64,000 nucleotides of DNA from Pedosphaera sp. (GTDB taxonomy: Bacteria > Verrucomicrobiota > Verrucomicrobiia > Limisphaerales > SIBH01), in NCBI GenBank assembly GCA_031414955.1, contig JANOQV010000240.1:10771-74770 (forward strand). Reading direction: 5' to 3'. Below are positions 24,501-60,972 of this stretch, piece after piece. The notes under the pieces are model-generated. The model saw only the letters and a list, made by a program, of their open reading frames with translations, did not search any database and was not told where the DNA came from. The translations under genes and the position numbers were made by a program. The first letter of the stretch is position 1. Each line of letters begins with the position of its first letter.

Positions 24501-24941
24501 CACTACTACGAATACGACATGGAGGTCGTCGAGGCGGACGGGCGCAAGACGAGCGTGGACCGGCACTCCGGCAAGTTCAGCGGCGGCGAAAACCAGTCGC
24601 CCTACTTCATCGCCATCCTCGCCAGTTACCTGCGCGCCTATCGTCGCTACAGCAATTCGCGCAAACAGGAGCCGTCGCTGGGACTGGTGCCGATTGACGA
24701 GGCGTTCTCCAAACTCAGCGGCGAGCGCATCAAGGACTGCATCACCGCGCTCAAGGCGTTTGATTTGCAGGGCGTGTTCTCGATGAGCACGGGCAACATC
24801 CCCTACGCCTTCGAGCACTGTGACTGGCTGGTGGTGGTGTCCAAAGAAGAACGTCGCCTCGGCAACCGGACGGAAATTCGCAACATCCCGGTGAGCCTCG
24901 CGCGCGATTCCGAGGACGCGCGGCAGCTGTTGAACGAGTAA
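21570..24941 (+). CDS. jetC: Wadjet JetC (SMC-family ATPase)
   Basis: LNWYGY, GVTGSGKS, FNQSA, RSLKGY; long coiled coils with central hinge; LLDYRHY, FSGGE, IDEAFSK. Confidence 0.95.
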   Translation: MTPTIRLTRIHALNWYGYKDTIPVEGNLLLAGVTGSGKSILMDLIQLVLVGDQRLVRFNQSATGDRSDRSLKGYCLGDTKQEENGVTQYMRHSAITYVALEFTWPNGKRVETWGLRIEFASAAETRGTVTPFFIPAALARSDFLDAEKRPLDSTAFKALTESHAARDGTRGRIYPEGLQAYLRDMAQPTHLNFDREVLSALLPTAMSFTFLKSFNDFARQFILPADKLDVSDVTASYRTFLGYERDLTELNDQFQRLKAIRDTFTRLTELRRDRALARYLEAQLRHEYAGEQLQDDEARLAKLREEYAGEEQRLKELDEALPELQRQIDGLKAAINETPDGRLYADLKSRNEKLARQLSQLSDTGNSLEQALANRIRNARAWLKDLRALPLELDAVSVGSVERALTAVVDGRVGKAGETLPALGTAAQTAAIAASRAAAPTQKRLGEVRQHLGQLRDEIATLKLGKLPGGNSRLLDALNASLLTHGPELPAQPLCKLCEVMDERWRPAIETAFTRKFAIVVPPEHYDLAEQTYHGLKAANLGGESGRESLINPVKALRLKKTIRPGSLAEKLQTSHPVAAAIVSHLFGDLMCVERREALREHDYAILPDGFMTRGAFVERPRFYDGNPFVGQRGLEQQRVWKEKQRDELEAEERKLAPVERAVQALNDGWREHFDIAPSLYGDLARAQELPKLKAELDENIAKLKTIDRAKFDELAQEQSKWEASLKAMEEERRALDRSEKRVELRRLESHAELTRGEVKKLAEKFEQVRNETDISPWLPRLAEVRAEMLGRFPAKDIAANRLNDQFHDCTEKAAAAWEDVKAKRRELAMAHPKFDDLPIEAETNTAHDQPLAKLGDYIPDYKAKSERERQNWEHLFRTQILEKLHSALMDVRDRISILTTELKKRPIGTNTYELRLRRNPDYQLYHELLEASALARGDDLFFASADERFRNAIAHFLKTLTEAPDGAEAARLLDYRHYYEYDMEVVEADGRKTSVDRHSGKFSGGENQSPYFIAILASYLRAYRRYSNSRKQEPSLGLVPIDEAFSKLSGERIKDCITALKAFDLQGVFSMSTGNIPYAFEHCDWLVVVSKEERRLGNRTEIRNIPVSLARDSEDARQLLNE

Positions 24942-24944
24942 GCC

Positions 24945-26096
24945 ATGAAAGCGTCTTCGCCCGTGCTCGAAGCTCTGGCCCGCCGTTATGATCTCACGCA
25001 GGCAGGGCGAACGGGAGAAGCCAGTCGCGATGTGTTGCTCCAGATCGAAGGTTTGCTGAAGGAAGCCGGCTCCCATGAAGGAGAAGCGCGCGCCGTCGCC
25101 GAGCAACACCTTCAGGAAGCGCAGCGAACCGGAATTCTCACCATCGAGCCGTTGCACAAACGCGACCGCAAGTCGTTTGGGCAAATTCGTTTTTCACCCT
25201 CCAACGAAGCCCGGCTTTACGAGCGACTGGGCCGCAACTCGCCCACGCAACTCCGCATCGCACTCGCGGGGCAGTTCACCGCTGCCGAGTCGTCCGAGAT
25301 TCCCGACCGCTGGCGCAACAACTGGCGGGACTGGTGCGAGCGCATGCGAACGGCGGCGCTGACCGGCGGCTCGACCGCACCGTTTGACCGGCATTCCAGC
25401 GAGGAGAACACAGAGTTGCTCACGCTTCTGCCCAAACTGCTGGCGTGGGAAGGCGAGTCGCTGGTGCGCTTCGCGAGCTGCGTGCTCTGCTGCGGCTCTA
25501 AAAAGATTGAGGCCTCAAAAAAGCTGGAGGCATGGGCGGCGAAGGAGGAACAGGGAGAATTCGCCGGACGCCTGCGCGGAAAACTTGGACGCCTGCTGGA
25601 GGACATCACAAGTGGAGAAATCAAGACGCTCGACGACCTGGGAATTTTGCCCAACCCGCGCTTTGCCCTCGTCCACGGCCCGTTGCGATTGCGGCTGGAT
25701 GGCGAATGGCTCGACCTCGGACGGTTGCACGGCGCGTTTCGCCTCGCGCTGACCGACATCGAACGCGCCGAAGAAATCACCACCAGCGCCCGCCGCTGCC
25801 TGACGGTGGAGAATGAAACCTCCTTTCACGAACTCGCCAAACTCCGCAGTGGCGAGCTGTTGCTTCAGACGAGTTATCCTGGCTCCGGCACGCTGGCGTT
25901 ACTGCAACGGCTGCCCGCCAACCTTGAGTTCTGGCACTTTGGCGACACCGACGAGGACGGCTTCAAGATTCTGCGATGTCTGCGGGAGAAAACAGGGCGC
26001 GACTTCCAACCACTGCACATGGAACGGGGCCGCGCCTCTCTTGAGCAGGAGTCGCTCGGACGCCCTACGCGGAAAGATTGGCCATTCTATGATTGA
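24945..26096 (+). CDS. jetD: Wadjet JetD (Topo VI-like TOPRIM nuclease, DUF2220-type)
   Basis: LTVENETSF, HFGDTDEDGFKI and LEQE motifs; 3 bp after jetC. Confidence 0.9.
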   Translation: MKASSPVLEALARRYDLTQAGRTGEASRDVLLQIEGLLKEAGSHEGEARAVAEQHLQEAQRTGILTIEPLHKRDRKSFGQIRFSPSNEARLYERLGRNSPTQLRIALAGQFTAAESSEIPDRWRNNWRDWCERMRTAALTGGSTAPFDRHSSEENTELLTLLPKLLAWEGESLVRFASCVLCCGSKKIEASKKLEAWAAKEEQGEFAGRLRGKLGRLLEDITSGEIKTLDDLGILPNPRFALVHGPLRLRLDGEWLDLGRLHGAFRLALTDIERAEEITTSARRCLTVENETSFHELAKLRSGELLLQTSYPGSGTLALLQRLPANLEFWHFGDTDEDGFKILRCLREKTGRDFQPLHMERGRASLEQESLGRPTRKDWPFYD

Positions 26097-38860: not shown

Positions 38861-40417
38861 TCAACGCTTCAGCATGGAGCGAAGCACGGCCAGTTCGGAA
38901 CCCAGTATTTTCCTGCTCATCCCGGCCAGGACACCGGTGACGATCAGGAGCACGACGTAGGAAACCAGCAGGAGGCCGAGGTGCGAGAGGGATGATCCGG
39001 GCAGATAGAATTTCAGCACCCCGGCAGTCAGCACCACCGCCAGCGGCAGAAGCCAGCTCCGCGCCGACCATCGCGCCGCAGACAAGCCGAGATGCCGGCA
39101 CGCGTACCAGCCCAGCCACAGGCTCAAGATGGAGTGCGCGATCACGGTCGCCACGGCGACGCCCGTGATGGAACCAAGGCGCATGGAAACAATGGAAAGT
39201 AGGACGTTGATCAAGCCGGTGCAGATGATCACCAGCCCGCTCACTTTGATCCCTTTGTCGCCGCAACGCGTGGCGAGTTGAATGCCCGTGTCGCCGCCGG
39301 TGGCCACGGCGAGGTTGCAGGCGAAGGCTAGTTGCCACGCCAGCGGACCCTGGCTGTCCGCGCCCAGCCAGAAGCGGATGAACAGATCGTTCAGTGCGAG
39401 AAAGACCAGCGCCGCGCCGGTGCCAAGCATGATTTGAAACAGGTTCAGGCGACCGGCCTCCAGGAGCAGCCGCCGGCGATCCGCCTCTTCTTGGCTGGAA
39501 ATCCATTGCGTGATTTTCGGCAGGCTCACGAAGCTGGCGGAAAGAATCAGGATGACGGCCAGTTCACAGGCTTTGTAGTTCGCCGTGTACATGGGAATGA
39601 TTTCGGAACCGAACCCGGCTTTGAGCACCAGCCGGTCCGTGGTGTGGTAAATCACGCTGCCGAGAGTGCAGAGGTAAAGCCAGCCGCTCGTACGCGCCAG
39701 CATCCGCCACTGCGCGCGATCTATTTTCAGCGGCCACAGATCGCCCAGCCAAGGGTGCGACCATTTGAGCATCCGCCAGGCGAGCCAGCCGGACAAAATC
39801 GACGCGGCCAGGTAAGGCGTGGTTTGCAACCACAGCGGCGCGCCCGTCCGCGCCAGCAGCCAGTGCAGCAGGGGTGCGAGCAACGAGCCTATGATCAGCG
39901 ACGGCAGGATCGGCCAGGTCACCGTGCCGTGGGCGTAGTTCAAACTTTGGAAATAGCCGCCCAGGATCATGGCCGACGCGCTCGCCCCGCCCCAGAGGAA
40001 GAGCACAGTGTAGGAACCCGCGCCGGCCACGTTCTCGAACTCCAGCCAGCCCGGCAGCCACGGCGAGAGCACGGCGAAGAGCACAAAAAGCGCCGCCGCC
40101 AGAAGCAGAAACAGGGTGCGCGCCGCCGCCAGCAAGGCGCGCAGTTCCTCGTGCTCGCCGCGACCCAGCAGGAGTCCGCCTTTGATCGAGATGACGCCGG
40201 TGATGCCCAGATCGCCCAGGCCGCCGAGCCGGGCCACGGATTGGAAGACGAGGAACAGGCCGAAGAGCGCGGCCCCCATCGAATCGAGGAACAGCCGGAA
40301 AAAAAGCAGCGACAGTAGCGCGCCCGCCGCCATGGCGGCGGCGCGCAACAGAAAGGCCAGCCGCACGGAGGTCCGATCCGGCAGGAGCAGGGCGCGCAGT
40401 TTCCCAGTGGCGCTCAT
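38861..40417 (-). CDS. Polysaccharide flippase (Wzx/MOP family)
   Basis: Many TM helices; LGDLGI, TDRLVL and FIRFWLG motifs; last gene of the glycan operon. Confidence 0.8.
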   Translation of the reverse strand: MSATGKLRALLLPDRTSVRLAFLLRAAAMAAGALLSLLFFRLFLDSMGAALFGLFLVFQSVARLGGLGDLGITGVISIKGGLLLGRGEHEELRALLAAARTLFLLLAAALFVLFAVLSPWLPGWLEFENVAGAGSYTVLFLWGGASASAMILGGYFQSLNYAHGTVTWPILPSLIIGSLLAPLLHWLLARTGAPLWLQTTPYLAASILSGWLAWRMLKWSHPWLGDLWPLKIDRAQWRMLARTSGWLYLCTLGSVIYHTTDRLVLKAGFGSEIIPMYTANYKACELAVILILSASFVSLPKITQWISSQEEADRRRLLLEAGRLNLFQIMLGTGAALVFLALNDLFIRFWLGADSQGPLAWQLAFACNLAVATGGDTGIQLATRCGDKGIKVSGLVIICTGLINVLLSIVSMRLGSITGVAVATVIAHSILSLWLGWYACRHLGLSAARWSARSWLLPLAVVLTAGVLKFYLPGSSLSHLGLLLVSYVVLLIVTGVLAGMSRKILGSELAVLRSMLKR

Positions 40418-40419
40418 CG

Positions 40420-41223
40420 TCACTGGCCGCGCCCGCGGATTTCGCGTACCCACTGTCGCAGATATCCAAGGAGTGGAAATTGCCACCGCTCATGCCACGC
40501 CGTCAGGCCAAGGTCGCTGACGAACCGCAGTTTTTCCCGAAACGTCTGCCGCCGTTTGCCCGGCAGCGTGTCCGAGAAGCGCGCTGCGTGAATGAGAAAG
40601 TGGGCGCAGGCGCGCGGCACGCCGAAAGCCCCGTTGCGCGCGGCCAATTTGCAAAACAACAGGCTGTCCGCGCAAATCGGCAGGGTGGGTTCGTACCCGC
40701 CGGAGCGCAGGAAAGCCTCGCGCGTGTAGGCCGCCACACTGGGCGGACCGAACTGCATGCCGAAGCGCATCACCACGTCCTGCATCTCCTCGGGCGTGAA
40801 GAATCGCCCCGTCCACTTGCCGATGGTGGTCCGGGTTTCGTCCCCGCGATGATAATGATAGCCGCAATAGACGTAAGCGCAGCGCTGCTCGCCCGCCGCC
40901 ACCCCGCGCACGGTGGCGATGTAGTCCGGCTCCAGCGAGTCGCCCGCGAAGAGCGGTTTGAGCCAATCGGCCTGCGACTGGTAGTGCAGCCAGTTCCAGT
41001 GCTCGACGCGGCCCAGTTCCGACGGCGGCTGAATCTTCCGCGCGGCGATGCCCGCCGCCGCCAGCACCGTCAGCGCGTTGGAAATGTGTTCGTGGCCGGA
41101 TGTGGAAAAATTGTCGCTGACGAGCACGGAGAAATGCTTGTCCGTCTGCGCGACCAGCGAGGTGATCGTTTTCCCGAACACGTCGGTGGCGTTGCGCACC
41201 GGGATGAGCACTTCGAGCGTCAT
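40420..41223 (-). CDS. Glycosyltransferase family 2
   Basis: VLIPVRN, SLVAQT, VSDNFS, GRVEHWN. Confidence 0.88.
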   Translation of the reverse strand: MTLEVLIPVRNATDVFGKTITSLVAQTDKHFSVLVSDNFSTSGHEHISNALTVLAAAGIAARKIQPPSELGRVEHWNWLHYQSQADWLKPLFAGDSLEPDYIATVRGVAAGEQRCAYVYCGYHYHRGDETRTTIGKWTGRFFTPEEMQDVVMRFGMQFGPPSVAAYTREAFLRSGGYEPTLPICADSLLFCKLAARNGAFGVPRACAHFLIHAARFSDTLPGKRRQTFREKLRFVSDLGLTAWHERWQFPLLGYLRQWVREIRGRGQ

Positions 41224-41993
41224 GTCGAAGCAGGAATCCGGGCGCCGCAGTAGGAGGTGGTTTTGAAAAACTCCAAATCTTCCGGAATCCCCAGCCCGTA
41301 CATGCCGTCGTACTCGCGGCCCGTCTTCATGGTCACGACGTTGGCACACTCGGCAATCAGTTGGTTATAGGTGGGTGCCACGTAGAACTCGTTGTTTACG
41401 CGCAGATTGGCCGCGATCATCGCCTCGGCGGCGCGCACGTAGTCGCGACCGGCGCGGAAATTGTAGATGCCCACGGTCGCCTCGTTGCTCACCACCTGCT
41501 TCTCGACCACCTCGCTCACGGTGCCGTCGGGCCGCATCCGGCAATAGGACCACTTGGGATGATCGGACCAGAAGGTCATGATCAACCCCGCCACCTCGGG
41601 TGCGTCGCCAGCGGCGAGGTAATCGTCGATGTTCAAGTCTACGATTTGATCGCTGTTGGCGATCATGAGCGGGTCGGCGTTGTCGATGAGTCCCTTGGCG
41701 AGCAGGACCGTGCAGGCGGCGCCTTCCGTCACGGTCCTGACCGGAATGATTTCACATCCAGGGCAGAGCCGGCGGATTTCAGCGGGCACTTCCGGATACA
41801 ATTCGAGATGTTCGCCAAGACAGAGAAAGATGAAGCGGTGCGCGCGCCGGGGACGGATGTTCTCGATGACCCATTGAATCATGGGCCGGCCGCCCACGGG
41901 AATCAGAGGCTTGGGCGTGGTGAAGCCGGCCTGGGCGAAACGCGAGCCGCGCCCGGCCATCGGCACCACAATTTGCAGGGTGTTCAGTATCAT
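41220..41993 (-). CDS. BcbE-like sugar nucleotidyltransferase (paralogue 1)
   Basis: PMAGRGSRF, PKPLI, TEGAACTV, ANSDQ, EFYVAPTYN, LGIPED. Confidence 0.85.
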   Translation of the reverse strand: MILNTLQIVVPMAGRGSRFAQAGFTTPKPLIPVGGRPMIQWVIENIRPRRAHRFIFLCLGEHLELYPEVPAEIRRLCPGCEIIPVRTVTEGAACTVLLAKGLIDNADPLMIANSDQIVDLNIDDYLAAGDAPEVAGLIMTFWSDHPKWSYCRMRPDGTVSEVVEKQVVSNEATVGIYNFRAGRDYVRAAEAMIAANLRVNNEFYVAPTYNQLIAECANVVTMKTGREYDGMYGLGIPEDLEFFKTTSYCGARIPAST

Positions 41994-42034
41994 TTTCTTG
42001 TACCTTCCCGCCTGAATGCCAAGTCAGGCATTCA

Positions 42035-42724
42035 TCAAGATGAGGTTTGTTTCGCGAACCACATCCGCCGCAGCCCGCTACGGAACTGTTTAGAGTTCGT
42101 GACGGGCCAGTCGTAGGTGTGAAAGTCCCAGTTGCAACGCGCATCCGTGATTTGTGTGAAGGAGAATTTTTCTTCCTTGAGGACGCGCTCCAGAAAAGCA
42201 GGCGAAGGACGTGAGCCTTGCCCCACCAAGGATTGGTCGTATCTATACGCGTGTTCCTTCACGTTTACCACCAACTCTGGATCATCCGAGTCGGCGACCT
42301 CCGTCTCCAAGATCAAGTGCCGGCACCGTCGGCAGGCTGCACGCAACGCCGCTTCCGGATCGGGCAGATGGTAAAGGACTCCCATGTGAATGATGACATC
42401 GAACACTTCCTGACCGGGAAGGCCACTGCCCAGATCGTGCTGAATCGCTTTGAGGAAGGGATAGCGATTTCGAATCACCCGCACATTGGACATGCGACCT
42501 TCCAGGCAGGTCACGTCGGCTCCGAGGGCGGAGAGGGTGGCTCCAATCGCACCAAAGGCTGCCCCCACTTCCAGGACGGTCTTACCGTCGAAGAACCGGT
42601 GACCGTAGTGATCGAGCGTCGCCAAGATTCGTCGGGCCCGCCAGACGGAATAATGGCCTTCGAACTTCTGCTCGCCCAGTTGGCCGAGTTTCCACTGCAA
42701 ATATGTTTTGATTCCTAAACCCAT
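42035..42724 (-). CDS. Class I SAM-dependent methyltransferase
   Basis: VLEVGAAFG, LEGR, FDVIIHMGVLYHLPDP. Confidence 0.88.
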   Translation of the reverse strand: MGLGIKTYLQWKLGQLGEQKFEGHYSVWRARRILATLDHYGHRFFDGKTVLEVGAAFGAIGATLSALGADVTCLEGRMSNVRVIRNRYPFLKAIQHDLGSGLPGQEVFDVIIHMGVLYHLPDPEAALRAACRRCRHLILETEVADSDDPELVVNVKEHAYRYDQSLVGQGSRPSPAFLERVLKEEKFSFTQITDARCNWDFHTYDWPVTNSKQFRSGLRRMWFAKQTSS

Positions 42725-42922
42725 AGTGTCTTGGTTGGTTCGCCCGCTTGATTGAATCCGCACTCGGCGCGCGGAACGCAAGCATGGGGTGAAATGTTTT
42801 GGATGACCTTCTGCAATTCCATCCACTCCCCCTTCCGCAGGGTCGCCGGCCGGCCAGTCCGGGTAGGCTGCCAGTGCCACCCATTTGTCCTGAGAATGCT
42901 GATCCCGCTAGTCATGGGATGT

Positions 42923-43873
42923 TCAATCGGTTCTCCGCATCCAAAAGGAGGCCGGACGGGTCGAGCCTTGCGGCAACAACCGGTTGAGCGCCGCGCGATG
43001 ATCGATGGAGAGGTAGTAGACCGGCAGAATCACTTCCAGCGCGCGGCTGTGGGTCAGGAGACATTCGAGGGCGTATTGCTCGTTGAACGGGCGCAGATGA
43101 TCGAGCAGCCACTCGCTGGGGTAATCGTACGGAGTGAAGATGTCATGGACATGCACGAAGACGCCGGGCTTAAGGCTGGGAATGATTTCCAGCAGTTCAT
43201 AGACGCAGTCGCTCTGCGCCTTGACGATATGCGTGGTATCGATGAAGAGCACGTCGTTAGCTTCGAGGCTGGTGAACTCGGCCAGCGGGACGTCCTGGAT
43301 TTTCTTTTCGATGAAGCGGCCGGGCGGCGGATTGCGACGGATGGACTCGGAAGGATAAGGCTCGATGAAAACACAGTCGCAGGGATGCTGCTCGGCGGCG
43401 TTTTTCCGGCAGGCTGCGGCCGCCACGCGCGAACTGTTTCCGCATCCCACCTCGATCAATTTCCGCGGCTTCAAGGACCGCAGCATCGAGTAGTAAGTGA
43501 TCGCGTCGAAATCCTCGAAGCCTCCGTTGTGCAGCCAGAACTCCGCGCCGGGAGCCGGCTCCACCGGCGTGCCGGCAAACTCCCGGGCAAACGGCTCCAG
43601 CCGGGTCAGCCACTCCGAGAACACCTCCTGGCGAAGCAGAATGCCGGGCAGATTCCGCCGCTGGCGCAGCTTCGCCACGTCCACGTCGAAGCGCGTTGGG
43701 CTGGCGGATTCAAAACGATACGGCTCGACGTGGTAACCAAGGTCGTCTTGCACGCGGGGCTGCTGCCAGTAGCTCTTCAGGATTTGCCGGACGAGCGGCT
43801 TTGGTAGAACCCGAACCAGGCGGTTGGCCAACTGCCGGCCATGCAGGCGGAATGCATCCGAAAGATTGCTCAT
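42923..43873 (-). CDS. Class I SAM-dependent methyltransferase (Methyltransf_24-like)
   Basis: IEVGCGNSS, IEPYP, LFIDTTH, VHVHDIF, NEQY. Confidence 0.88.
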   Translation of the reverse strand: MSNLSDAFRLHGRQLANRLVRVLPKPLVRQILKSYWQQPRVQDDLGYHVEPYRFESASPTRFDVDVAKLRQRRNLPGILLRQEVFSEWLTRLEPFAREFAGTPVEPAPGAEFWLHNGGFEDFDAITYYSMLRSLKPRKLIEVGCGNSSRVAAAACRKNAAEQHPCDCVFIEPYPSESIRRNPPPGRFIEKKIQDVPLAEFTSLEANDVLFIDTTHIVKAQSDCVYELLEIIPSLKPGVFVHVHDIFTPYDYPSEWLLDHLRPFNEQYALECLLTHSRALEVILPVYYLSIDHRAALNRLLPQGSTRPASFWMRRTD

Positions 43874-44018
43874 TTTTTGAAATAAAGCGTGGTCGGACGG
43901 TCTTTGACAGACCGCGAACTGCGCTCAGCCAGGAAAATGACGATCGGCGGCTTACTCATTCAACACTTTATCGTTGTCCGGCGCGCTGAAGCTAATGTCA
44001 TGCAAAAACCACGGCAAA

Positions 44019-45215
44019 TCATTTTCCAGTCGTAGGCCCGGAACTGCGCCAACGCACCAGGAGCGCGTGGCCGGCGCGCAGGCACGGCTTTTCCACCAGC
44101 GAGTAAGCAGCCCAACTCCAAAGAAGGATCAGGCCCAACACCAGCGTCGGCACCACGACGAAGAGCACGACGCTGGTTTGCGGCAAACCAAGGCGATCGA
44201 GGTAGTGCAGGATGCGACCGATCAGGGGATGATGCCACAGATAAAACGAGTAGCTCCACACCCCCACCGGAACCAACCATCTTTCCCACCGGGCCAGCGG
44301 CGCGGTGCAATGAAGGCAGGCTTCCATCAAGCCGGCGAACATGAGCGATGCCAAGGTGAAGCTGAACACGCGAGCCGGCTGCCAAAGCGTCGCCGCCACG
44401 AACGCGACCCCCAACCACGGCGCGCTGCGGGTCAAGCCGGGCCAGCGCAAGCCCGCCGCCCATTTCTCGGCCAGCACCGCCCCCAGCATCCAATCGAACA
44501 GCAGAATCAGCGGAGAGCTCCACAACGCCTGGTTCTCCGGCTGGTTCCAGTCCTGCACCAGCGCTGCCACCAAACGCACCACCAGACTTAGGCCCAGCAC
44601 CGCCGCGAACGCCCCGCGCATTCCCCAGCGGCGACGCAACCACAACACGGCCGGATACAGGAGGTAAAATTGCCACTCAACCGCTAGACTCCAGAACACT
44701 GCGGCGATGGCCATGTGGGTCGCGGATGAAAAGTTGTGCCCGAGAAACACATGCAGCCAGAAGTTGGACGCCGAGGGTGCATTGCCGTGCCGTGCCTCCA
44801 GCCAGGAGAAGACAACCAGTGCTAGCAGGTAGGGCGGATAAATCCGCCAGAACCGCCGCCAAAAAAATTCCCGAACGAATTTGCCAAGAGCAATTCCACC
44901 AGGCGCGGCGCGCTCTTGTTTGAGGAACGAGCAATGAATGCAGAAGCCGCTGATGACAAAGAACAACGACACCCCAGACCAGCCGAGATACAAGGGATAC
45001 AGCCACCAAGCCGACATCCCCAAGCCGCTGACCGGTTTAACCCAGGATTCGTTCCACTTGAGATCAAATCCTCCGGACATGAAGGGCAGCGCGTGGCAGA
45101 AAAAAACCAGCAAAATCGCCACCGCACGCAGTACATCAATGCGGTCGAGATGTCCGAGGCGTGGCGCAAGAGTCGCGCTCACAGAACCTCCAGCTGCCTG
45201 ATGAGGAGAGATCAT
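44019..45215 (-). CDS. Acyltransferase-3 (OafA-like) membrane O-acyltransferase
   Basis: DVLRAVAILLV, GVSLFFVISGF, RRFWRIYPPY, WSLAVEWQFY, SYSFYLWH, VEKP. Confidence 0.93.
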   Translation of the reverse strand: MISPHQAAGGSVSATLAPRLGHLDRIDVLRAVAILLVFFCHALPFMSGGFDLKWNESWVKPVSGLGMSAWWLYPLYLGWSGVSLFFVISGFCIHCSFLKQERAAPGGIALGKFVREFFWRRFWRIYPPYLLALVVFSWLEARHGNAPSASNFWLHVFLGHNFSSATHMAIAAVFWSLAVEWQFYLLYPAVLWLRRRWGMRGAFAAVLGLSLVVRLVAALVQDWNQPENQALWSSPLILLFDWMLGAVLAEKWAAGLRWPGLTRSAPWLGVAFVAATLWQPARVFSFTLASLMFAGLMEACLHCTAPLARWERWLVPVGVWSYSFYLWHHPLIGRILHYLDRLGLPQTSVVLFVVVPTLVLGLILLWSWAAYSLVEKPCLRAGHALLVRWRSSGPTTGK

Positions 45216-45291
45216 GTCACAACCACCAAGGCACCAAGCGGCGAGTTCAGCAGGTTCGCGGTGCAGTGGAAAAACTCGCGTAAAATGCCGT

Positions 45292-46044
45292 TCACGCGGG
45301 CGAGTGACCAGCCGTGTGACCGGCGAATTCCTTGAGGAACAGCTCGTAATCCTCCGGCGTGCCGAGGCTGTGCATCGTGCCTTCCGGCAGGTGGTGCGTG
45401 GTGACGGTTTTGCCGTCGAGAATCAACTCGTTGTAAACCGGGCAGACGAAGAACTGCCCGCTGGTGCTGAGTCCTTTCAAAATCATCTTCTCCGCTGCCG
45501 CCATCAAATCACCAGCCCGGCGGAAGTAATAAAGTCCCGCCGTGGCCTGCTTGCTGATCGGGCGCTTCTCGGCGACGGCGGTGACCCGTCCGCGCTCGTC
45601 CGTCTTCGCGAATGACCAGCGCGGGTGGGTGGCGGTGAAAGTGAGTATGCAGCCGTCGATGTCCGGCTTCCGGCAGGCTGCGTAGAATCCGGCCAGGCCG
45701 GCATCAATGACCTGGTCACCGTTGGCCACCAGCACTTCATCCTCGAGTGCGATCTGATCCATCGCCAGCAGCACCGAACAGAGGGCGCCGGCGGTCTCGT
45801 TCTCCAGGGCGAGCACGCGCGAGTCCGGTGCGATGAGCCGCAGCATGTCGCCGAGGTAGAACTGGGTGACCTGTTCCTTGCGGCAGACGAAGGTAAAGCG
45901 GGCGGGCGCTGGCGGCGCGAGGTTTTTCAACACCAGCTCAACCATCGACTGATTGCCGATCTCGAGCAGCGGTTTGGGGAAAGTGTAGCCGCGCTCCTGG
46001 AAGCGCGTCGCTTTGCCGGCCATGGGAATGATGACTTGCAGCAT
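45292..46044 (-). CDS. BcbE-like sugar nucleotidyltransferase (paralogue 2)
   Basis: PMAGKATRF, PKPLL, TAGALCSV, ANGDQ, FFVCPVYN, LGTPED. Confidence 0.85.
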   Translation of the reverse strand: MLQVIIPMAGKATRFQERGYTFPKPLLEIGNQSMVELVLKNLAPPAPARFTFVCRKEQVTQFYLGDMLRLIAPDSRVLALENETAGALCSVLLAMDQIALEDEVLVANGDQVIDAGLAGFYAACRKPDIDGCILTFTATHPRWSFAKTDERGRVTAVAEKRPISKQATAGLYYFRRAGDLMAAAEKMILKGLSTSGQFFVCPVYNELILDGKTVTTHHLPEGTMHSLGTPEDYELFLKEFAGHTAGHSPA

Positions 46045-46048
46045 AGCG

Positions 46049-46669
46049 TTATCCGGCGCTTTCAATCGCGCGCCGCACGCGCGCGTAATCCACTTCGCCA
46101 AAACCGCTGACCTGGCAGACCAGCGCGCCGCTTTGCCGCGCGGCCTCCAGCCCGTGCGGCGCGTCCTCCACGATGATGGCCTCCGACGGTTTCACACCCA
46201 GCAATTCGCAGGCGCGCAGATACATCTCCGGATGCGGCTTGGCGTTCTTCACGTCCTCGTTGCTGAGGAGAAGATCAAACAAGTCGATGATGCCGCTGCC
46301 GCGCAGCATCAACTCGACGCTGTCACGGATGGAGTTGGAACAGACGGCCAGCTTGAAGCCATCGCGCTTGAGCTGGTGGATCATGAACTCCTTCTCGAAA
46401 ACCGGCGTGCAGCGGCGCAGGATTTCCTCGCGCGTGTACTTCTGTTTGATCTTGTTGACCAATGAATGCAGCCCACGCGGAAAGCCTTTCTCCACGGAAA
46501 GCATCTCCAGCTTCTGGCGCGTGGGCAGCCCGTTGTAGGTCGTGAGGTGCTCGTAGCGCGAAATGGTGTAGCCGAACAGGCCGAGCGCGCGGTTCAGCGC
46601 CTCGTAGTGCCATTCGGTGGCATCCACCAGCACTCCGTCGAGGTCGAAGAGAACGGCTTTAATCCTCAT
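46049..46669 (-). CDS. HAD-family phosphatase
   Basis: FDLDGVLVD, CSNS, KPHPEMY, IVED. Confidence 0.92.
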   Translation of the reverse strand: MRIKAVLFDLDGVLVDATEWHYEALNRALGLFGYTISRYEHLTTYNGLPTRQKLEMLSVEKGFPRGLHSLVNKIKQKYTREEILRRCTPVFEKEFMIHQLKRDGFKLAVCSNSIRDSVELMLRGSGIIDLFDLLLSNEDVKNAKPHPEMYLRACELLGVKPSEAIIVEDAPHGLEAARQSGALVCQVSGFGEVDYARVRRAIESAG

Positions 46670-47031
46670 CGCTTGCCTGAGGTCGGCGCGGCCCCGGCGG
46701 CTGGGTCGCAAAGATATTTGTCGCCCTTCACACACGGCAGCTTCACCACCACGGTCGTGACTTCGGTCACGGCCTCGAAGTCCGCCGCAGTGCCGGGAGG
46801 GATGCGGATAATCTCTCCCGCGTGCAAATCCTCGCCGTTCATGCGCGCGAGGCCGGACACAATCAGGGTGAGTTCCGTAGCCACGCGGTGAACGTGCTTC
46901 GGCTCGTGCGTTCCCGCCTGGTAGCGTTGCACCGCTACTTCGGCGGCGTCGGTCGGTATCAACGTGGGGGAAAAGTTCCCCACGAACCAGCCTCGCGTGA
47001 AGTCATCCAGCTTGTGTCGTTCCAGCGGCAT
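46666..47031 (-). CDS. Cupin-domain protein
   Basis: GWFVGNFSP, HVHRVATE, VVVKLPCVKGDKY. Confidence 0.8.
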   Translation of the reverse strand: MPLERHKLDDFTRGWFVGNFSPTLIPTDAAEVAVQRYQAGTHEPKHVHRVATELTLIVSGLARMNGEDLHAGEIIRIPPGTAADFEAVTEVTTVVVKLPCVKGDKYLCDPAAGAAPTSGKR

Positions 47032-47038
47032 CTTGTTT

Positions 47039-47725
47039 TCAACCAAAAAATTCCCGTGCTTCGAGGGCGTAATCTGTGCAAAGCCCGTCGATGTGCCAAT
47101 GCTTAAAATCCGCCCAGCGCTTTTTAGTGGTGGCACGGTCGAAGCCGTGAATCTCCGGCGAGATGATGTAAAAGAGCCGGCCGGCCGCCTGCACGGCGCG
47201 GACCTCGCGCTCGGTCAGCCAGAGCGAATCGAATTCATCGGCCCAGACGATCTCCGCCGGGATGCCGAGGCACTGCGTCAGGGTTTCCCCGCGATCGCTG
47301 AGCCGCGAGGCCAGCCTTACGGAGGCACCTCCAGGCAGCCTCCGGATTTTTTCCTGGGCCGCGCCCGGGGCCTCCGGCTCCAGCAGCTCGAAATCGAAAT
47401 AAAAGCCGCGTTCACCCAGACGACGGTCCTGGGCCAGCCGGAATAGCTCGGCCTCGTAGCCCAGTTCCTTCGCGTTAATGGCCAGTTCCGCGTTGGGGAA
47501 TTTGGCAAACAAGGCGCTGAAGTGCTCCAGGCAGTTGGCCGGCGTTCGGGGCACGGCATCATGGCTGATATAGAACCGGCCGGCCGGATCGCGGCGCAAA
47601 TCCGTCTCCAACCCGAAGCCCGCCTCCAAAGCGGCGGCGCACGCGGCCAAGGAATTCTCCTCCACGGACTTTGGCCCGGTCAGGTTGGCCCGATGGGCCA
47701 TGATGGTGATGGTGCAGCGGCGCAC
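47039..47725 (-). CDS. Glycerophosphodiester phosphodiesterase (GDPD/PI-PLC)-like protein
   Basis: AHRAN...ENS, GFGLETDLR, ISHD, INAK, ISPEIHG, GLCTD. Confidence 0.75.
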   Translation of the reverse strand: MRRCTITIMAHRANLTGPKSVEENSLAACAAALEAGFGLETDLRRDPAGRFYISHDAVPRTPANCLEHFSALFAKFPNAELAINAKELGYEAELFRLAQDRRLGERGFYFDFELLEPEAPGAAQEKIRRLPGGASVRLASRLSDRGETLTQCLGIPAEIVWADEFDSLWLTEREVRAVQAAGRLFYIISPEIHGFDRATTKKRWADFKHWHIDGLCTDYALEAREFFG

Positions 47726-47741: not shown

Positions 47742-47942
47742 TCAGAAGAGCGTGTAAATAAAGGGCGCGGCGGCCGTCGAGCCGAGAATAATCAGCACGC
47801 CGAAAGCCAGTAGGATCAGCACCAGCGGGAGGAGCCAGTACTTCTTGTTTTCCTTCAGCATGGCCAGGAACTCGCGCAGCAGGCCCGGGTCCTTCTCCTC
47901 GCCGGAGGCCTCGAAGGCCGTTTGCTTCTTCTCGTCTTGCAT
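47742..47942 (-). CDS. Small single-TM protein, DUF5989/SxtK-like, ending in FIYTLF
   Basis: ENKKYWLLP-hydrophobic helix-AAPFIYTLF*; downstream of the SxtJ-like gene. Confidence 0.85.
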   Translation of the reverse strand: MQDEKKQTAFEASGEEKDPGLLREFLAMLKENKKYWLLPLVLILLAFGVLIILGSTAAAPFIYTLF

Positions 47943-47953
47943 GGATTTCAGAA

Positions 47954-48391
47954 TCAAAACTGGCGGTAATAGCGCTTGGGATCAATCCCCTTCTCCGCGT
48001 CCCGCCAGTAGGTCGGCGTAGAGCGGTCGAACTTCCGGCGCAGCGGATCGCGTCCGGCCAGGCGCATGACGAGGCCCATCGGCGTCAGCAGCAGGTAATA
48101 AAACGCGGCGAAGAGGACGTTGCCCAGCACGATACCGACGCAGCAACCGAAGAAATACCAGACGGCGTAGAAGGGCCGGGCAATTTGCGGAACCAGCCAG
48201 AGCACCACGCCGACGGCCAGGCCGATCACGCCGAGCCAGAGGAAGAAGGGCTTCCAGCTTCCCGCCGTCAGGCGTGCGACGGTTCCCATGATCAGGGCGA
48301 TGACCGGGAAGCCGATGACGAGGCTGAGGGCGAATTTCTTCCGCTCGGCCCGGCCGGGGTTCCAGTTGACGTCTTTGAAGGGGTTGAGCAT
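47954..48391 (-). CDS. SxtJ family membrane protein
   Basis: RKKFAL, hydrophobic segments, FYYLLLTPMGLVMRLAGRDPL, TYW, YYRQF*. Confidence 0.88.
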   Translation of the reverse strand: MLNPFKDVNWNPGRAERKKFALSLVIGFPVIALIMGTVARLTAGSWKPFFLWLGVIGLAVGVVLWLVPQIARPFYAVWYFFGCCVGIVLGNVLFAAFYYLLLTPMGLVMRLAGRDPLRRKFDRSTPTYWRDAEKGIDPKRYYRQF

Positions 48392-48396
48392 GGGGA

Positions 48397-50244
48397 TCAG
48401 TCGAGGGAAAAGCTGCCCAGATATTTTTCGCGCTCGGCGGCGCTTTGGGGCGGCTGCTCGGTCTTGTAGAGCAGGCAGTTCTCGAGCACGAGCACGTCCA
48501 TGTCCGAGGCCAGGAAGCAGCGATAGGCGTCCTGCGGCGTGCAGACAATCGGCTCGCCGCGGATGTTGAAGCTGGTGTTGATGATCACGCCGCAGCCGGT
48601 CTGTCGCTTGAACTCGCGAATCAGCCGGTAGTAGCGCCCGTTGCGTTTCTCATCCACGGACTGCACGCGCGCGGACATATCGACGTGCGTGATGGCGGGC
48701 AGCTCCGAGCGCTTCACATTGACGCGCTTGCGCAGATCGGGATCGCGCATGGCGGCCTGCTGTTCGGCGGTGAGCGCGCAAAGCTTCTCCTTTCGCACCG
48801 GGGCCACGAGCAGCATGTAAGGCGACTCGCGATCCAACTCGAAGTTCTCCGCCACGTCTTCGGCCAGCACGCTGGGGGCGAAGGGACGAAAGCTTTCGCG
48901 GAACTTGATGCGCAGGTTCATCTGCGACTGCATCTTCTCGCTGCGTGAATCCCCGATGATGCTGCGCGCCCCGAGAGCGCGCGGTCCGAACTCCATGCGG
49001 TCCTGGAACCAGCCCACGACCTTCTCCTCGCGCATGGCCTCGACGGTCCGGCGCAGCAACTCTTCCTCGTTCGCGTGGAAGTGGTACTTCACTTTCTGCG
49101 CATCGAGGAACTGGCGGATCTCTTCGTTCGAGAACTTTGGCCCGAGCAGCGAGGCCCGCATCAACGAGTCCGAGCCATTGGGCTTCCGCTCATTTTCCAG
49201 CAAATGAAAGTGGACAAACATGGCCGCACCCAAAGCGCCGCCAGCGTCGCCGGCCGGGGGCGGAATCCAGATGTCCTCGAAAATCTTCTCGCGCAGAAGG
49301 ACGCCATTGGCCACGCAGTTCAGGGCCACACCGCCGGCCAGGCACAGGTATTTGGAGCCAGTAAGTTTCTTGGCCGTGCGCGCCATGCGGAGCACGGCTT
49401 CCTCGGTCACTTTCTGGATCGACGCCGCCAGATCCATCTCACGTTGCGTGATGTTCGATTCGGCGCCGCGCGGTGGGCCGCCGAAGAGCTGGTCGAACTC
49501 GGGACTGGTCATGGTCAGACCCTGGCAGTAGTTGAAATACCGCATGTCCATGGCCATGGAGCCGTCGGGCTTCAGGTCGATGAGATGGTTCAGAATCAGA
49601 TCGACATACTTCGGCTCGCCGTAGGGCGCGAGCCCCATGAGTTTGTATTCCCCTGAGTTGACACGGAAGCCGGTGAAGTAGGTGAAGGCGGAATAGAGCA
49701 GCCCCAGCGAATGTGGGAAGCTCATCGTCTTGAGCATCTGGAGCTTATTGCCCTGGCCGTGCCCGATGCTGGCCGTGTCCCACTCGCCCACGCCGTCCAG
49801 GGTGAGGACGGCCGCGTCGTCGAAGGGCGAGGGAAAGAAGGCGCTGGCCGCGTGCGACTCGTGGTGGCCGGTGAAGACGATGCGCTTCTTGTAGCGTCCG
49901 CCGAGAGATTTCCGGATCTCCTTGGGCAGATGCAGCTTGGTCTTCAGCCACAAGGGCATGGCCATGAGGAACGACGGCAGGCCTTGCGGCGCGAAGGCGA
50001 GGTAGGTTTCCAGCAACCGCTCGAACTTGAGCAACGGCTTGTCGTAGAAAACCACGTAATCCAAATCCTCGGGCTGGAGGCCCGCCTCGCGCAGACAGTA
50101 ATCAACCGCGTGCTTGGGAAAATTGTGATCGTGCTTCTTACGAGTGAACCGCTCTTCCTGCGCCGCCGCCACGAGCCGGCCCTCCACCATCAACGCCGCC
50201 GCGCTGTCGTGGTAGTAAGCAGAAACACCCAGGATTTTGGACAC
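48397..50244 (-). CDS. O-carbamoyltransferase (NodU/CmcH/TobZ/SxtI family)
   Basis: ILGVSAYYHDSAA, QEERFTRKKH, HHESHAASAF, DGVGE, GEYKLMGLAPYG, GGVALNC, EFGPRALGARS, FRPFAP, NTSFN. Confidence 0.96.
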   Translation of the reverse strand: MSKILGVSAYYHDSAAALMVEGRLVAAAQEERFTRKKHDHNFPKHAVDYCLREAGLQPEDLDYVVFYDKPLLKFERLLETYLAFAPQGLPSFLMAMPLWLKTKLHLPKEIRKSLGGRYKKRIVFTGHHESHAASAFFPSPFDDAAVLTLDGVGEWDTASIGHGQGNKLQMLKTMSFPHSLGLLYSAFTYFTGFRVNSGEYKLMGLAPYGEPKYVDLILNHLIDLKPDGSMAMDMRYFNYCQGLTMTSPEFDQLFGGPPRGAESNITQREMDLAASIQKVTEEAVLRMARTAKKLTGSKYLCLAGGVALNCVANGVLLREKIFEDIWIPPPAGDAGGALGAAMFVHFHLLENERKPNGSDSLMRASLLGPKFSNEEIRQFLDAQKVKYHFHANEEELLRRTVEAMREEKVVGWFQDRMEFGPRALGARSIIGDSRSEKMQSQMNLRIKFRESFRPFAPSVLAEDVAENFELDRESPYMLLVAPVRKEKLCALTAEQQAAMRDPDLRKRVNVKRSELPAITHVDMSARVQSVDEKRNGRYYRLIREFKRQTGCGVIINTSFNIRGEPIVCTPQDAYRCFLASDMDVLVLENCLLYKTEQPPQSAAEREKYLGSFSLD

Positions 50245-50271
50245 GCGGAAAACGTAGGGTGAAATTCAGCC

Positions 50272-51618
50272 TCAAGGCAACTGTACGCTCGCGCGAGGCG
50301 GAGGGTAAAAGGCGCCCGCGATGGCTTCCGCGGCCAGGCGATGCCCCGCTTCCGAGAAATGGCCGGAACCATTCGAGAGGTAAAGCGTGCGAATCTGTTC
50401 GGTCGTCAACTGCCGCCGCTTCATTTCATCGCCCAGGGCCAGGAGCGGCAGGCGACGGCGACTGGCCCACAAAGCGAGTTGCCTTTCGGGAGCAAGAAAG
50501 TCGTATGCGCCCAACTGTCCGTTCCAGTTCGTGCCCTTGGTCGCGTAAAAGTCCTGGGGGAAAAAGGGCACCGTGACCAGGCGAAGGCTGATGGCGTTGC
50601 TTTCGGCGAAGTGCGCGGCCCGGTCCAGCAAGGCTTCCATGATTTCCAAGCCTTCGCGCGCCGCCGGAGAAGGCTGCCGGGCGAACGGCTCGGCTTTCAA
50701 CCCCAGCCGTGATGTTTGGGCTTCAAACCCGGCGTGGTGCGTGAGGTCCGCCGCCAGTTTTCTGCGCAAGGCCAGGGTGTTGCGGACGCTGATCGGCACC
50801 TGGGCCAGCAGGCAATGGCTCACCGCCAGGCGGGGCAGGAACAACCCGGACGGCCGGTGCGAAAAGTCGATCGTCTGCGCATATCGGAACCGGCTCGCTT
50901 CTCCGGTCGCGTCCAGTTGCAATTCGCCCGCCGCGCCGGGCGTGTAGTAAATGAACGAGGCGGGATCGTGGAACTGCAGGCGCGGCGAGCAGTCCGTGAT
51001 GTCATTCCCCAGATACAGAACCAGGATGGCCTCCTGCACGGCGAAACGGCGGTGCGCGTATCGAAGCACTTCCAAATAATGAGCGGGGCCGGTGCCATGG
51101 TTGCCCAGTCCCAGCACGGTCCGGGAAACCTCCTGCGCGCCCAGCTTCCCGCCCAGCATGGCCGCCAGGTTGCGCGTGCGATGCACCTCGACCGCCTCGA
51201 CAAAACTATCCCCAATCACCGCCGTGCGGTTGGTGCGGCTGAGATCGAACTCGGGAAAGTACCAGCCCTGGCGATTGCGAATGGAATTACCCAGACCCTC
51301 AGCGGTCCAATAGACCCGACCCCAAGGCAGGCGCTCCTTGGTGTTCACGGCGGGCAGGATTCCCAGCCAGGCGCTGGCCTGGAGCAACACCTCCACCAGT
51401 CCGCAGCCACACACCACCACAAACAGCTTTACCAGGGTGGCGGGCCGGCCCCACCCGCCGACCGCTGCCGCCGCCAAGCCGGCGGCGATAAAGGCCCAGA
51501 AGCTTTTTCCCTCCCAGGCCCGGAGCCCCAGCGCGTGCAACTCCAGCGCCAGCACCGCGCCGAGGAGCGCGAACCCCAGCCCCATGGTCCAAAAGAATCG
51601 GCGAATAAATCGTTCCAT
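50272..51618 (-). CDS. Membrane-anchored SGNH/GDSL protein (AlgJ/DltD-like fold)
   Basis: N-terminal TM helices; GDSF block I, G block II, GND block III, SGHFSEAGH block V. Confidence 0.85.
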   Translation of the reverse strand: MERFIRRFFWTMGLGFALLGAVLALELHALGLRAWEGKSFWAFIAAGLAAAAVGGWGRPATLVKLFVVVCGCGLVEVLLQASAWLGILPAVNTKERLPWGRVYWTAEGLGNSIRNRQGWYFPEFDLSRTNRTAVIGDSFVEAVEVHRTRNLAAMLGGKLGAQEVSRTVLGLGNHGTGPAHYLEVLRYAHRRFAVQEAILVLYLGNDITDCSPRLQFHDPASFIYYTPGAAGELQLDATGEASRFRYAQTIDFSHRPSGLFLPRLAVSHCLLAQVPISVRNTLALRRKLAADLTHHAGFEAQTSRLGLKAEPFARQPSPAAREGLEIMEALLDRAAHFAESNAISLRLVTVPFFPQDFYATKGTNWNGQLGAYDFLAPERQLALWASRRRLPLLALGDEMKRRQLTTEQIRTLYLSNGSGHFSEAGHRLAAEAIAGAFYPPPRASVQLP

Positions 51619-56093: not shown

Positions 56094-56200
56094 TGACGTC
56101 GTGGATTCTCCGGCAAGGTTGGGCGTGGCGAACGTGGTGCCAAGCGTGGGGCTGATGCTTTTGTTTGACCGCCAAACACCAAACCCAAAAGCTCGCGCCC

Positions 56201-57598
56201 ATGCACCTGAAGACCATTCTCACCACCGCCATTGCCGCGCTGCTCGGTGCGCCCGCTTTTGCCCAGAACACGCCGGACTCCGTCACGCTGTTCAACCACG
56301 TCCGCATCTTCGATGGTAAATCCGCCGCGCTTTCCGCGCCCGCCAACGTGCTCGTGCGCGGCGACAAGATTGAAAAAATCTCCGCGCAACCCATCGCCAC
56401 CGACCGGCGCGGCGACACGAAGATCATTGATGGCATGGGCAAGACACTGATGCCGGGGCTGATTGACAATCACGTCCACCTGTTCATGGCCGGCAGTTCC
56501 GAGAAGGAGATGATGGACCCCAAGGCGACCGTCGAGGGACTCGAAGCGGTGGCGGCCGAACAGGCGCGGCTCATGTTGCTGCGCGGCTTCACCTCGGCGC
56601 GCGATGTGGGCGGGCCGGTGTTCGGCGTGAAGCGGGCGATTGATTCCGGCAAGAACATCGGCCCGCGCATTTATCCGAGCGGTGCGATGATCTCGCAGAC
56701 TTCCGGCCACGGTGACTTTCGGATGCCCAAGGATCGTTCGCGGCGGTTCGGCGGCCAGGTGACGGCGGGTGAACTGATGGGCATCGGCTTCATCGCCGAC
56801 GGCCGCGACGAAGTGCTGACCGCCACGCGTGAAAATCTCCGCGCGGGCGCGACGCAGATCAAAGTCATGGCCGGCGGCGGCGCGGCCTCGGTTTATGACC
56901 CGCTCGACGTGGCGCAATACACGCTGGACGAACTCAAGGCTGCCGTTGAAGCAGCGGACGACTGGGGAACGTATGTCACCGTTCACGCCTACACGCCCAA
57001 GGCCGTGCGCCGCGCGGTGGAAGCGGGCGTGAAGTGCATCGAGCACGGGCAACTGCTCGACGAGCCGACGATGAAGCTGCTGGGCAAGAAAGGAATCTTC
57101 CTGAGCCTGCAAGCCCTCGACGAAGCACCGCCCACGCAGACCGAGGCAGTGAAAGCCAAGAAACATCAGGTCGTGCAGGGCACGGACAACGCCTTCAAAT
57201 GGGCGAGGAAGCACAAGGTCAAACTCGGCTGGGGCACGGACCTGATGTTCTTCCCCGCGCAGATGAAAAACCAGAACAGCGACATTCTCAAACTGACTGC
57301 GTGGCTCACGCCCGCCGAGACGCTCAAGTTGGTCACGCACGACAACGCGCAACTGCTCGCGCTCTCCGGCCCGCGCAATCCCTATCCCGGAAAGCTGGGC
57401 GTCGTTGAGGAGGGCGCGCTCGCAGACCTGTTGCTTGTGGACGGCGATCCTGTCGCGAATCTCAATCTCGTCGCCGATCCGGAGAAGAACTTCCTCGTCA
57501 TCATGAAAGACGGGAAGGTGTTCAAGAACACGGTGAAGCAGGCGTCTCAGGGCGCTGAATCCCATGAAAGCCAAGGGCGCGCCACGATGATTCGGTGA
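56201..57598 (+). CDS. Exported metal-dependent amidohydrolase (Xaa-Pro dipeptidase-like)
   Basis: Signal peptide; MPGLIDNHVH, GFTSARDVGG, IKVMAGGG, VHAY, IEHG, WGTD, ADLLLVDGDP. Confidence 0.92.
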   Translation: MHLKTILTTAIAALLGAPAFAQNTPDSVTLFNHVRIFDGKSAALSAPANVLVRGDKIEKISAQPIATDRRGDTKIIDGMGKTLMPGLIDNHVHLFMAGSSEKEMMDPKATVEGLEAVAAEQARLMLLRGFTSARDVGGPVFGVKRAIDSGKNIGPRIYPSGAMISQTSGHGDFRMPKDRSRRFGGQVTAGELMGIGFIADGRDEVLTATRENLRAGATQIKVMAGGGAASVYDPLDVAQYTLDELKAAVEAADDWGTYVTVHAYTPKAVRRAVEAGVKCIEHGQLLDEPTMKLLGKKGIFLSLQALDEAPPTQTEAVKAKKHQVVQGTDNAFKWARKHKVKLGWGTDLMFFPAQMKNQNSDILKLTAWLTPAETLKLVTHDNAQLLALSGPRNPYPGKLGVVEEGALADLLLVDGDPVANLNLVADPEKNFLVIMKDGKVFKNTVKQASQGAESHESQGRATMIR

Positions 57599-60620: not shown

Positions 60621-60669
60621 ATGTTGCTCTTTGACCGATAGCCAAAAAACAATCCTCAAACCCATGAAA
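60621..60669 (+). repeat. Direct repeat of 62094-62142 (antiporter 3' end + intergenic + next start codon)
   Basis: 46/49 nt identical: atgttgctctttgaccgatagccaa...caatcct.aaacccatgaaa. Confidence 0.9.
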
Positions 60670-60972
60670 TCAAAACTCCTGTTCACGACCACTGTTGCAG
60701 TGCTGCTCGGCGCGACCACCTTCGCGCAGGACGCGCCCAAGTCCGTCACGCTGTTTTCCAACGTCCGCATCTTCGACGGCAAATCCGCCGCGCTCACCGC
60801 ACCCATGAACGTCCTCGTGCGCGGCAGCAAGATCAAGAAGATGTCTGCCGCACCCATCGCCACCGACAAGTGCGGCGACACGGTCATCATTGACGGCGCG
60901 GGCAAGACGCTCATGCCGGGGCGGATATTCTTACTGCCATCAAAGTGCGAAGTGCGTAGCGTTAATGGATGA
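60664..60972 (+). pseudogene. 5' fragment of an amidohydrolase paralogue
   Basis: SVTLFSNVRIFDGKSAALTAPMNVLVRG...DGAGKTLMPG closely matches the 56201 protein, then breaks off just before the HxH metal motif. Confidence 0.85.

Follow-up and report, generated by a model that had tools for sequence, protein, structure and literature searches.

How could a carbamoyl group that is activated in the cytoplasm be placed on a molecule at the cell surface? The question is raised by four genes on the minus strand of a 64,000-nucleotide stretch of DNA from Pedosphaera sp. (phylum Verrucomicrobiota; assembly GCA_031414955.1, contig JANOQV010000240.1, positions 10,771 to 74,770; hereafter, the window), which encode, in this order, an SGNH-fold protein, a NodU/CmcH-family O-carbamoyltransferase (CT), an SxtJ-family membrane protein, and a DUF5989 peptide. 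As an earlier prediction from the sequence alone had it (the original prediction), these genes head a polysaccharide operon; their presence is confirmed and they stand close together, with gaps of 27, 5, and 11 nt, and 16 nt more to the next gene downstream. We favour, with some though not high confidence, the view that the four proteins form a carbamoyl relay, from the CT to Tyr63 of the peptide, to Ser138 of the SGNH protein, and finally to a cell-surface acceptor, which in the window is probably the polysaccharide of the operon that follows.

The predicted carbamoyl shuttle is the 66-aa peptide (47742..47942; Pfam PF19451, E 4e-19), in which an amphipathic helix, a Lys-rich stretch, and one transmembrane helix (TM) are followed by the C-terminal PFIYTLF. 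The last six residues, FIYTLF (47745..47762, with the Tyr63 codon at 47754-47756), are in the same register as FXYXXF, the acyl shuttle of DltX and PatA, printed with its invariant Tyr in the portion of PMC12148441 used here. This DltX-like ending, singled out in the original prediction, holds across the phylum. Matches to PF19451 occur in 68 of 301 genomes (70 rows, of which 69 were examined, a weak one with an internal stop being left out, and one is truncated where its contig ends); Tyr is at position -4 in 68/68 complete peptides and the full FxYxxF in 64/68, counts to be read with the knowledge that the profile contains the tail, so that retrieval somewhat favours tail-bearing peptides. 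Among 722 homologues, the best 120, which are close relatives, share P-F-I-Y and the final F without exception, the Tyr being at -4; DUF5989 is also present in many other phyla. The motif is more than a chance occurrence because, among 19,434 six-frame open reading frames (ORFs) of at least 100 aa in the same genome, only the membrane-bound O-acyltransferase (MBOAT), a positive control, ends in FxYxxF; this protein, the one MBOAT of the genome, is encoded on another contig and has the tail FIYWQF. A DltX profile search on the peptide gave no DltX match, with DUF5989 alone retrieved at E up to 0.05. No paper naming DUF5989 was found in the literature searched, which does not include the primary DltX paper that could list it. 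Fusions of DUF5989 hinted at by long open frames proved to be artefacts of upstream read-through.

In agreement with the predicted outside location of the C-terminus, Lys and Arg average 2.65 before the TM and 0.03 after it, and are more numerous before it in 69/69 peptides of the phylum. From this charge bias and hydropathy, the peptide is predicted to be N-in/C-out, as is DltX. Its tail after the TM has 13 residues and places the Tyr about 10 residues from the helix end, some 35 Å if extended.

Which enzyme would load the tyrosine? The CT (48397..50244; 615 aa), the predicted cytoplasmic donor, matches PF02543 (E 2e-101) and PF16861 (E 2e-71) and, by sequence, shares the two-domain fold of TobZ, GdmN, and NovN-type enzymes in the PDB (E about 1e-90 to 1e-82); H12, H127, H131, D150, and D333 are invariant across 94 aligned CTs. 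Against the NodU equivalog NF041651, it scores 127 bits, the cut-off being 1000. Enzymes of the NodU/TobZ family activate carbamoyl phosphate in the cytoplasm at the expense of ATP, and the known members of the TobZ, GdmN, and NovN type transfer the group directly to the acceptor, which in TobZ is bound by the N-terminal domain. Unlike these, the window CT is of the SxtI/GvgF type, with N-terminal-domain residues of its own and Tyr-bearing peptide partners. In a FastTree phylogeny of 106 CTs (midpoint-rooted, the PDB enzymes not being among them), a single clade with support of 0.999 unites 44 peptide-linked CTs, 8 gvg-type CTs, 20 CTs with a tyrosine tail of their own, and those of loci L131 and L140, the other 32 falling outside; the N-terminal domain holds 22 of the 26 clade-typical positions. 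The peptide-linked and gvg-type CTs have in common a C-terminal extension with the ending [FY]xLD (48397-48440 in the window), which most others lack; it could be a contact to SxtJ or to the membrane.

Membrane-free versions of the system suggest an answer. At locus L133, a CT that itself ends SVYTLF stands beside an SGNH protein without a TM. The last 60 residues of this CT retrieved 105 matches and, with the query included, 94 of the 106 sequences end Y-x-x-hydrophobic (xVYT[LF][LFVI]) after a divergent linker; on a Streptomyces plasmid, a tail-bearing CT and a soluble SGNH lie within a nonribosomal peptide synthetase cluster. SGNH proteins lacking an N-terminal hydrophobic segment are found beside tail-bearing CTs (L132, L133, L211) and beside the small TM-less peptides discussed below as GvgB-like (L214, L216, L218, L223, L228). 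Because the membrane-free versions thus put the Tyr(-4) ending on the CT tail or on a TM-less peptide, we propose that the CT would carbamoylate the tyrosine directly, in place of the passage of carbamoyl via SxtJ that had originally been predicted. Locus L132 (6856-10197; G262:C40) encodes a natural SGNH-CT fusion of 1113 aa, with no TM and the ending SVYVMF, possibly a whole relay in one chain. In the tree, it nests among the peptide-linked CTs, apart from the other tail-bearing clade, a position that, with moderate support, suggests that the fused tail arose twice.

The fused tails also bear on a different role for the peptide, namely, that the system resembles a ribosomal-peptide pathway with the peptide as its final substrate, whose tail is carbamoylated and then cut off by the SGNH protein in the manner of CgnD in crocagin biosynthesis. 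NodU-family enzymes do act on peptides in the crocagin and std pathways, as far as the published descriptions drawn on here go, and CgnD is among the PDB matches of the SGNH profile (E 8e-4). However, a tail that hardly varies from phylum to phylum and that, within one clade, forms the C-terminus of the CT itself is unlike a consumed substrate, and the neighbour clusters contain no further recurrent genes for peptide modification; we regard this possibility as very improbable.

The relay, as we favour it, would end with the SGNH protein (50272..51618; 448 aa from the ATG), the predicted final transferase. Its motifs comprise Ser138 in block I (GDSF; codon 51205..51207), the predicted nucleophile, Asn205 in block III (GND), and His420 in block V (GSGH; codon 50359..50361), the predicted catalytic base, the assignment of Ser138 and His420 following from sequence and alignment. 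Lipase_GDSL_2 is matched only at E 0.0018, below the Pfam cut-off, and the best PDB match of the SGNH profile is AlgJ (4o8v, E 9e-7), with TesA and AlgX also retrieved. The lack of DxH in block V, which had been flagged as an open point, is a subfamily trait, with GxGH as the consensus, whereas many other peptide-adjacent SGNH proteins keep DxH. Ser138 is conserved at 90% or more in a 66-row SGNH set. N-terminal hydrophobic helices anchor the window protein, and an N-terminal hydrophobic segment is present in 65 of 67 peptide-adjacent SGNH ORFs. Among 13 family relatives searched, two have the window's SGNH subtype, in both cases beside DUF5989. Peptide-adjacent SGNH-TPR proteins (L031, L046-L050, L202) show no canonical block I motif by pattern search.

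With a membrane anchor on both the peptide and the SGNH protein, and an outward orientation predicted for each, the tail must reach the cytoplasmic CT. The SxtJ protein (47954..48391; 145 aa; PF19588, E 2e-10) is the candidate dock and passage, although this role is one that we infer. A model gives it helices at 14-43, 48-66, and 68-111, the last of 44 residues, followed by a basic tail, and the stretch from helix 3 to the tail is the most basic segment measured; the tail is probably inside, an orientation that is also imposed by an SxtJ-SGNH fusion at L140 with a TM between the two parts. A fold search of the PDB gave nothing at E up to 0.001, and Atlas returned SxtJ clusters only. The C-terminus reads RYYRQF, as had been pointed out, but it is not a conserved shuttle-like motif: Tyr is at -4 in 4/94 homologues and at -5 in 46/94, which rules out SxtJ as a second tyrosine shuttle. 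In the mechanism that we envisage, SxtJ would dock the CT at the membrane via its basic tail and stand in for the MBOAT tunnel without carrying a covalent group, while the tail of the peptide would swing between the two faces, pick up carbamoyl on Tyr63 from the CT, and hand it, on the outer face, to Ser138 in the SGNH protein; the latter would then place it on the surface acceptor and determine which acceptor is modified.

At L140, a single case, the CT, the SGNH nucleophile, and the Tyr tail have been lost together: SxtJ is fused to an SGNH domain without the block I Ser, the CT lacks conserved His residues and 43 of 122 conserved positions, and a peptide-like ORF nearby has no Tyr tail. All frames of this module (L140:7969-11525; G008:C552) are open, and it perhaps has a non-catalytic role.

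If the relay operates as proposed, peptide and SGNH genes should be companions, and this association, part of the original prediction, is borne out by a survey of 141 peptide loci with wide flanks, 61 from the phylum and 80 from other phyla. The latter are the best 80 of 584 confirmed matches picked on the APFIYTLF tail pattern and therefore were not used to gauge motif conservation. SGNH profiles were built from the other-phylum loci, from the window's subfamily, and from generic SGNH proteins of the same genome, and the count of 34/80 at the other-phylum loci is circular, since these loci served to train the profile. When the neighbours were clustered, SGNH was the commonest family. At 32/61 phylum peptide loci, an SGNH gene is no more than 500 nt away, compared with 4/33 peptide-less CT loci and 1.35% of random blocks of the same genome. 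The controls are 33 of 34 CT rows without a peptide match, a contig-end fragment being left out; one of them, L151, has a broken CT, and the peptide of its genome lies elsewhere. All 4 SGNH-positive controls fall inside the peptide-linked clade of CTs, and none of the remaining 29 has SGNH within 5 kb. MBOATs are rare in this setting, in line with the original prediction: by single-sequence search, one is present at 3/141 peptide loci, each time with an FxYxxF tail of its own.

The same survey supplies an argument for an alternative in which SxtJ and the peptide just anchor and activate the CT at the inner membrane, the acceptor being a lipid-linked or cytoplasmic molecule that is carbamoylated directly, the tail a non-covalent docking motif, and SGNH an optional editing enzyme by which carbamoyl or acetyl groups are taken off. 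Indeed, the CT and SxtJ both adjoin the peptide at 114/141 loci (48/61 in the phylum and 66/80 in other phyla), forming a constant core, whereas SGNH is adjacent at 66/141. A docking motif, however, needs no invariant hydroxyl across the membrane, and the anchoring of SGNH tracks that of the peptide. The natural-product clusters considered next provide arguments on both sides, and, on balance, we consider this alternative unlikely but worth keeping in sight.

In the cluster of Pseudomonas fluorescens WH6 for 4-formylaminooxyvinylglycine (FVG), gvgA encodes an esterase, gvgB a Lys-rich protein of 27 aa without a TM, gvgF a CT, and gvgG a protein of 47 aa with a TM (10.1101/080572, PMC8064604, PMC8067088, PMC4010436, in the portions cited here). 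These are the counterparts of the window genes, GvgB and GvgG of WH6 being matched by position and description, and they differ from the window in the soluble SGNH, the TM-less peptide, and the small-molecule product. Deletion of gvgA, gvgB, gvgF, or gvgG abolishes FVG (10.1101/080572); thus, loss of the esterase removes the product and does not alter it, contrary to the expectation for an optional editor. The authors of that study, in the text available, note that CTs of this kind, SxtI included, come with small TM genes, and hold that small TM proteins facilitate the enzyme, in line with the anchoring alternative. In the sequences analysed here, all 8 gvg-like loci that extend past the SGNH stop codon, several of them closely related, continue with a Lys-rich ORF containing [IT]YP[LM], in which Tyr is at -4 in 7/8, the frame running on in L217; the small TM ORFs that follow the CT match SxtJ positions 77-129 in 6/6 cases tested. 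Among 401 genomes of one proteobacterial order, only one gvg-like cluster was found. The aldgamycin/chalcomycin cluster has genes homologous to gvgA, gvgC, gvgF, as well as gvgG, and of unassigned role (PMC8064604, as far as cited here).

The saxitoxin clusters of cyanobacteria have the same four gene types as the window, likened here by description, under consecutive accessions: sxtI, sxtJ, and sxtK, of which SxtK has 54 codons, and then the GDSL gene sxtL (PMC2684587, PMC2679770, in part). The window differs in having the SGNH gene upstream and glycan genes as neighbours. The original prediction offered a function for sxtI/J/K-like genes outside toxin clusters, and this claim needs changing, since in sxt itself these genes are followed by an SGNH gene. 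On the strength of its size and position, we take SxtK to be a DUF5989 peptide. The parts of the two papers drawn on here list SxtJ and SxtK as unknown and SxtL as a proposed decarbamoylase, which fits an editing SGNH better than a transferase. A wider proposal, which we regard as possible though slightly on the doubtful side, is that CTs of the entire clade carbamoylate a Tyr(-4) carrier, be it their own tail, a GvgB-like peptide, or DUF5989, with SGNH as the true transferase and the DUF5989 tail crossing via SxtJ without an MBOAT; this would explain sxtJ, sxtK, and sxtL as well as gvgA, gvgB, and gvgG.

What is the acceptor? Downstream of the four genes, the co-oriented genes at 38861..47725 (minus strand) are, from Pfam matches and context, the likely source of the acceptor polysaccharide. 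They encode a 228-aa protein, a cupin, a HAD protein, two nucleotidyltransferases, a stand-alone AT3 acyltransferase (44019-45215), two methyltransferases, a GT2 glycosyltransferase (GT), and a multi-TM protein without a Pfam match, a putative Wzx-like flippase; beyond this operon lie an opposite-strand block of GT genes and a Wzy_C gene. With regard to the remaining sxt biosynthetic genes, the 11 flanking genes scanned matched glycan families, housekeeping families, or no family at all; the genome as a whole was not searched for sxt. In G716, a genome of the same genus, the four genes are inside the same polysaccharide operon, with gene order changed and no AT3 gene. The 41220-47725 block (two nucleotidyltransferases, HAD, cupin, and the 228-aa protein, which has no Pfam match) stays with the polysaccharide operon in G716 and could serve to synthesize an unusual substituent, a sugar or a phosphate. 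More generally, the predicted co-occurrence with glycan genes is upheld in part: GT2/GT4 genes are present at 41 of 100 peptide loci of at least 14 kb, against a background of 10.4%, but at only 5/26 SGNH-adjacent loci of the phylum. A glycan acceptor is therefore plausible for the window locus, not as a general rule.

It could also be that the tyrosine relay is right and the acceptor is a protein, a lipid, or a small molecule, or else that the whole relay is cytoplasmic with a re-entrant peptide. The soluble versions sit in small-molecule clusters, many peptide loci have no GT gene, and the topology of the peptide is predicted from charge bias and hydropathy; nevertheless, within the genus the four-gene block keeps its place within the same Wzx-type operon, or leads it, even where genes have been rearranged, and the charge bias is unanimous, so that we rate these variants as rather improbable for the window. 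Still harder to credit is the notion that the SGNH protein serves the AT3 protein in O-acetylation and has nothing to do with the CT. The AT3 gene does belong to the same operon, and AT3-SGNH pairs are known (PMC12148441, in the part used). But in G716, SGNH stays with CT, SxtJ, and the peptide, with no AT3 match in the 17.6 kb of the locus covered, and, by single-sequence search, AT3 occurs at 3/66 SGNH-adjacent loci, two of these being AT3-SGNH fusions.

Several observations weigh against the relay, or against parts of it. An outward-facing Tyr and a cytoplasmic CT require a crossing step, which, as said, we infer. No SGNH is present within 500 nt at 75/141 peptide loci, including the polysaccharide clusters L051-L053 and L080, and a Pfam scan of 35 neighbours at SGNH-less loci revealed no hidden SGNH. 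Kin among the loci are not independent, which qualifies the Fisher p of 1.2e-4 for the SGNH enrichment. In the 10 phylum genomes where the peptide is apart from the enzyme, 0/9 enzyme loci examined have SGNH. GT genes are commoner at peptide-less CT loci (20/29) than at peptide loci, and rare, as noted, at the SGNH-adjacent loci of the phylum. The window SGNH lacks the block V Asp (DxxH/DxH), and Ser138 is conserved in less than 70% of a 113-row subfamily alignment. L131 has an in-clade CT and a soluble SGNH, with no Tyr peptide found nearby. Neither the name of FVG nor its known steps, as given in the cited part of PMC8067088, include a carbamoyl group, and the gvg genetics therefore show need, not chemistry. 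Finally, most GvgB-like peptides end in Arg or His, not Phe, and profile comparison with DUF5989 was not significant (probability 0.1), so that the two share an ending and a layout, with ancestry not proven.

Other features of these loci are noted for their own sake. No alternative acceptor enzyme recurs at SGNH-less loci among 131 neighbours clustered or 35 scanned. In the 10 phylum genomes with a solitary DUF5989 gene, mostly of one family (L162-L180), SxtJ-CT is elsewhere, neither has an SGNH gene beside it, and the peptide gene is often flanked by an MscS-like gene on one side and by ftsZ or a metallo-beta-lactamase-fold gene on the other. Plasmid records matching the peptide number 47, of which 38 are from Sinorhizobium or Ensifer; pSymB of Sinorhizobium meliloti encodes SxtJ-DUF5989-carbamoyltransferase (L238:6811-11044), and in strain Ak57, a divergent SGNH is split into two unannotated ORFs. 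Elsewhere in the window, four co-oriented genes at 19445-26096 (485, ~220, 1123, and 383 aa, the third SMC-like), with an AAA ATPase pair upstream at 17614-19448, form a group that, to our eye, presumably resembles a Wadjet/JetABCD defence operon. The start of the amidohydrolase-like gene at 56165-57598 is repeated as a short truncated copy at 60664-60972, before the gene at 60969.

The closest analogues of the proposed relay are DltX-DltB-DltD, which D-alanylates teichoic acid, and PatA-PatB, which O-acetylates peptidoglycan; in both, as in the window, a single-TM microprotein with a C-terminal FXYXXF has a membrane-anchored SGNH partner and the motif is either free-standing or fused to the donor enzyme (PMC12148441, in the part cited). 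These systems rely on an MBOAT, whereas here a soluble NodU-family donor, the additional protein SxtJ, and a putative carbamoyl group would be involved; having no MBOAT, the window system is not a member of that kind but would work alike. The literature searched contains no description of a carbamoyl-tyrosine relay, yielding sxt, gvg, and unrelated papers only, and no paper that joins acyl shuttle, carbamoyl, and tyrosine. The present analysis adds the fused or TM-less Tyr(-4) endings beside soluble SGNH proteins and the union of three CT types in a single clade. If the proposed relay is correct, the acyl-tyrosine shuttle would take in another chemical group and another type of donor enzyme, both new to it, and an activated group would have a way through the membrane that needs neither an MBOAT nor an AT3 tunnel. 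The esterases encoded in several natural-product clusters would then have to be regarded as transferases instead of hydrolases.

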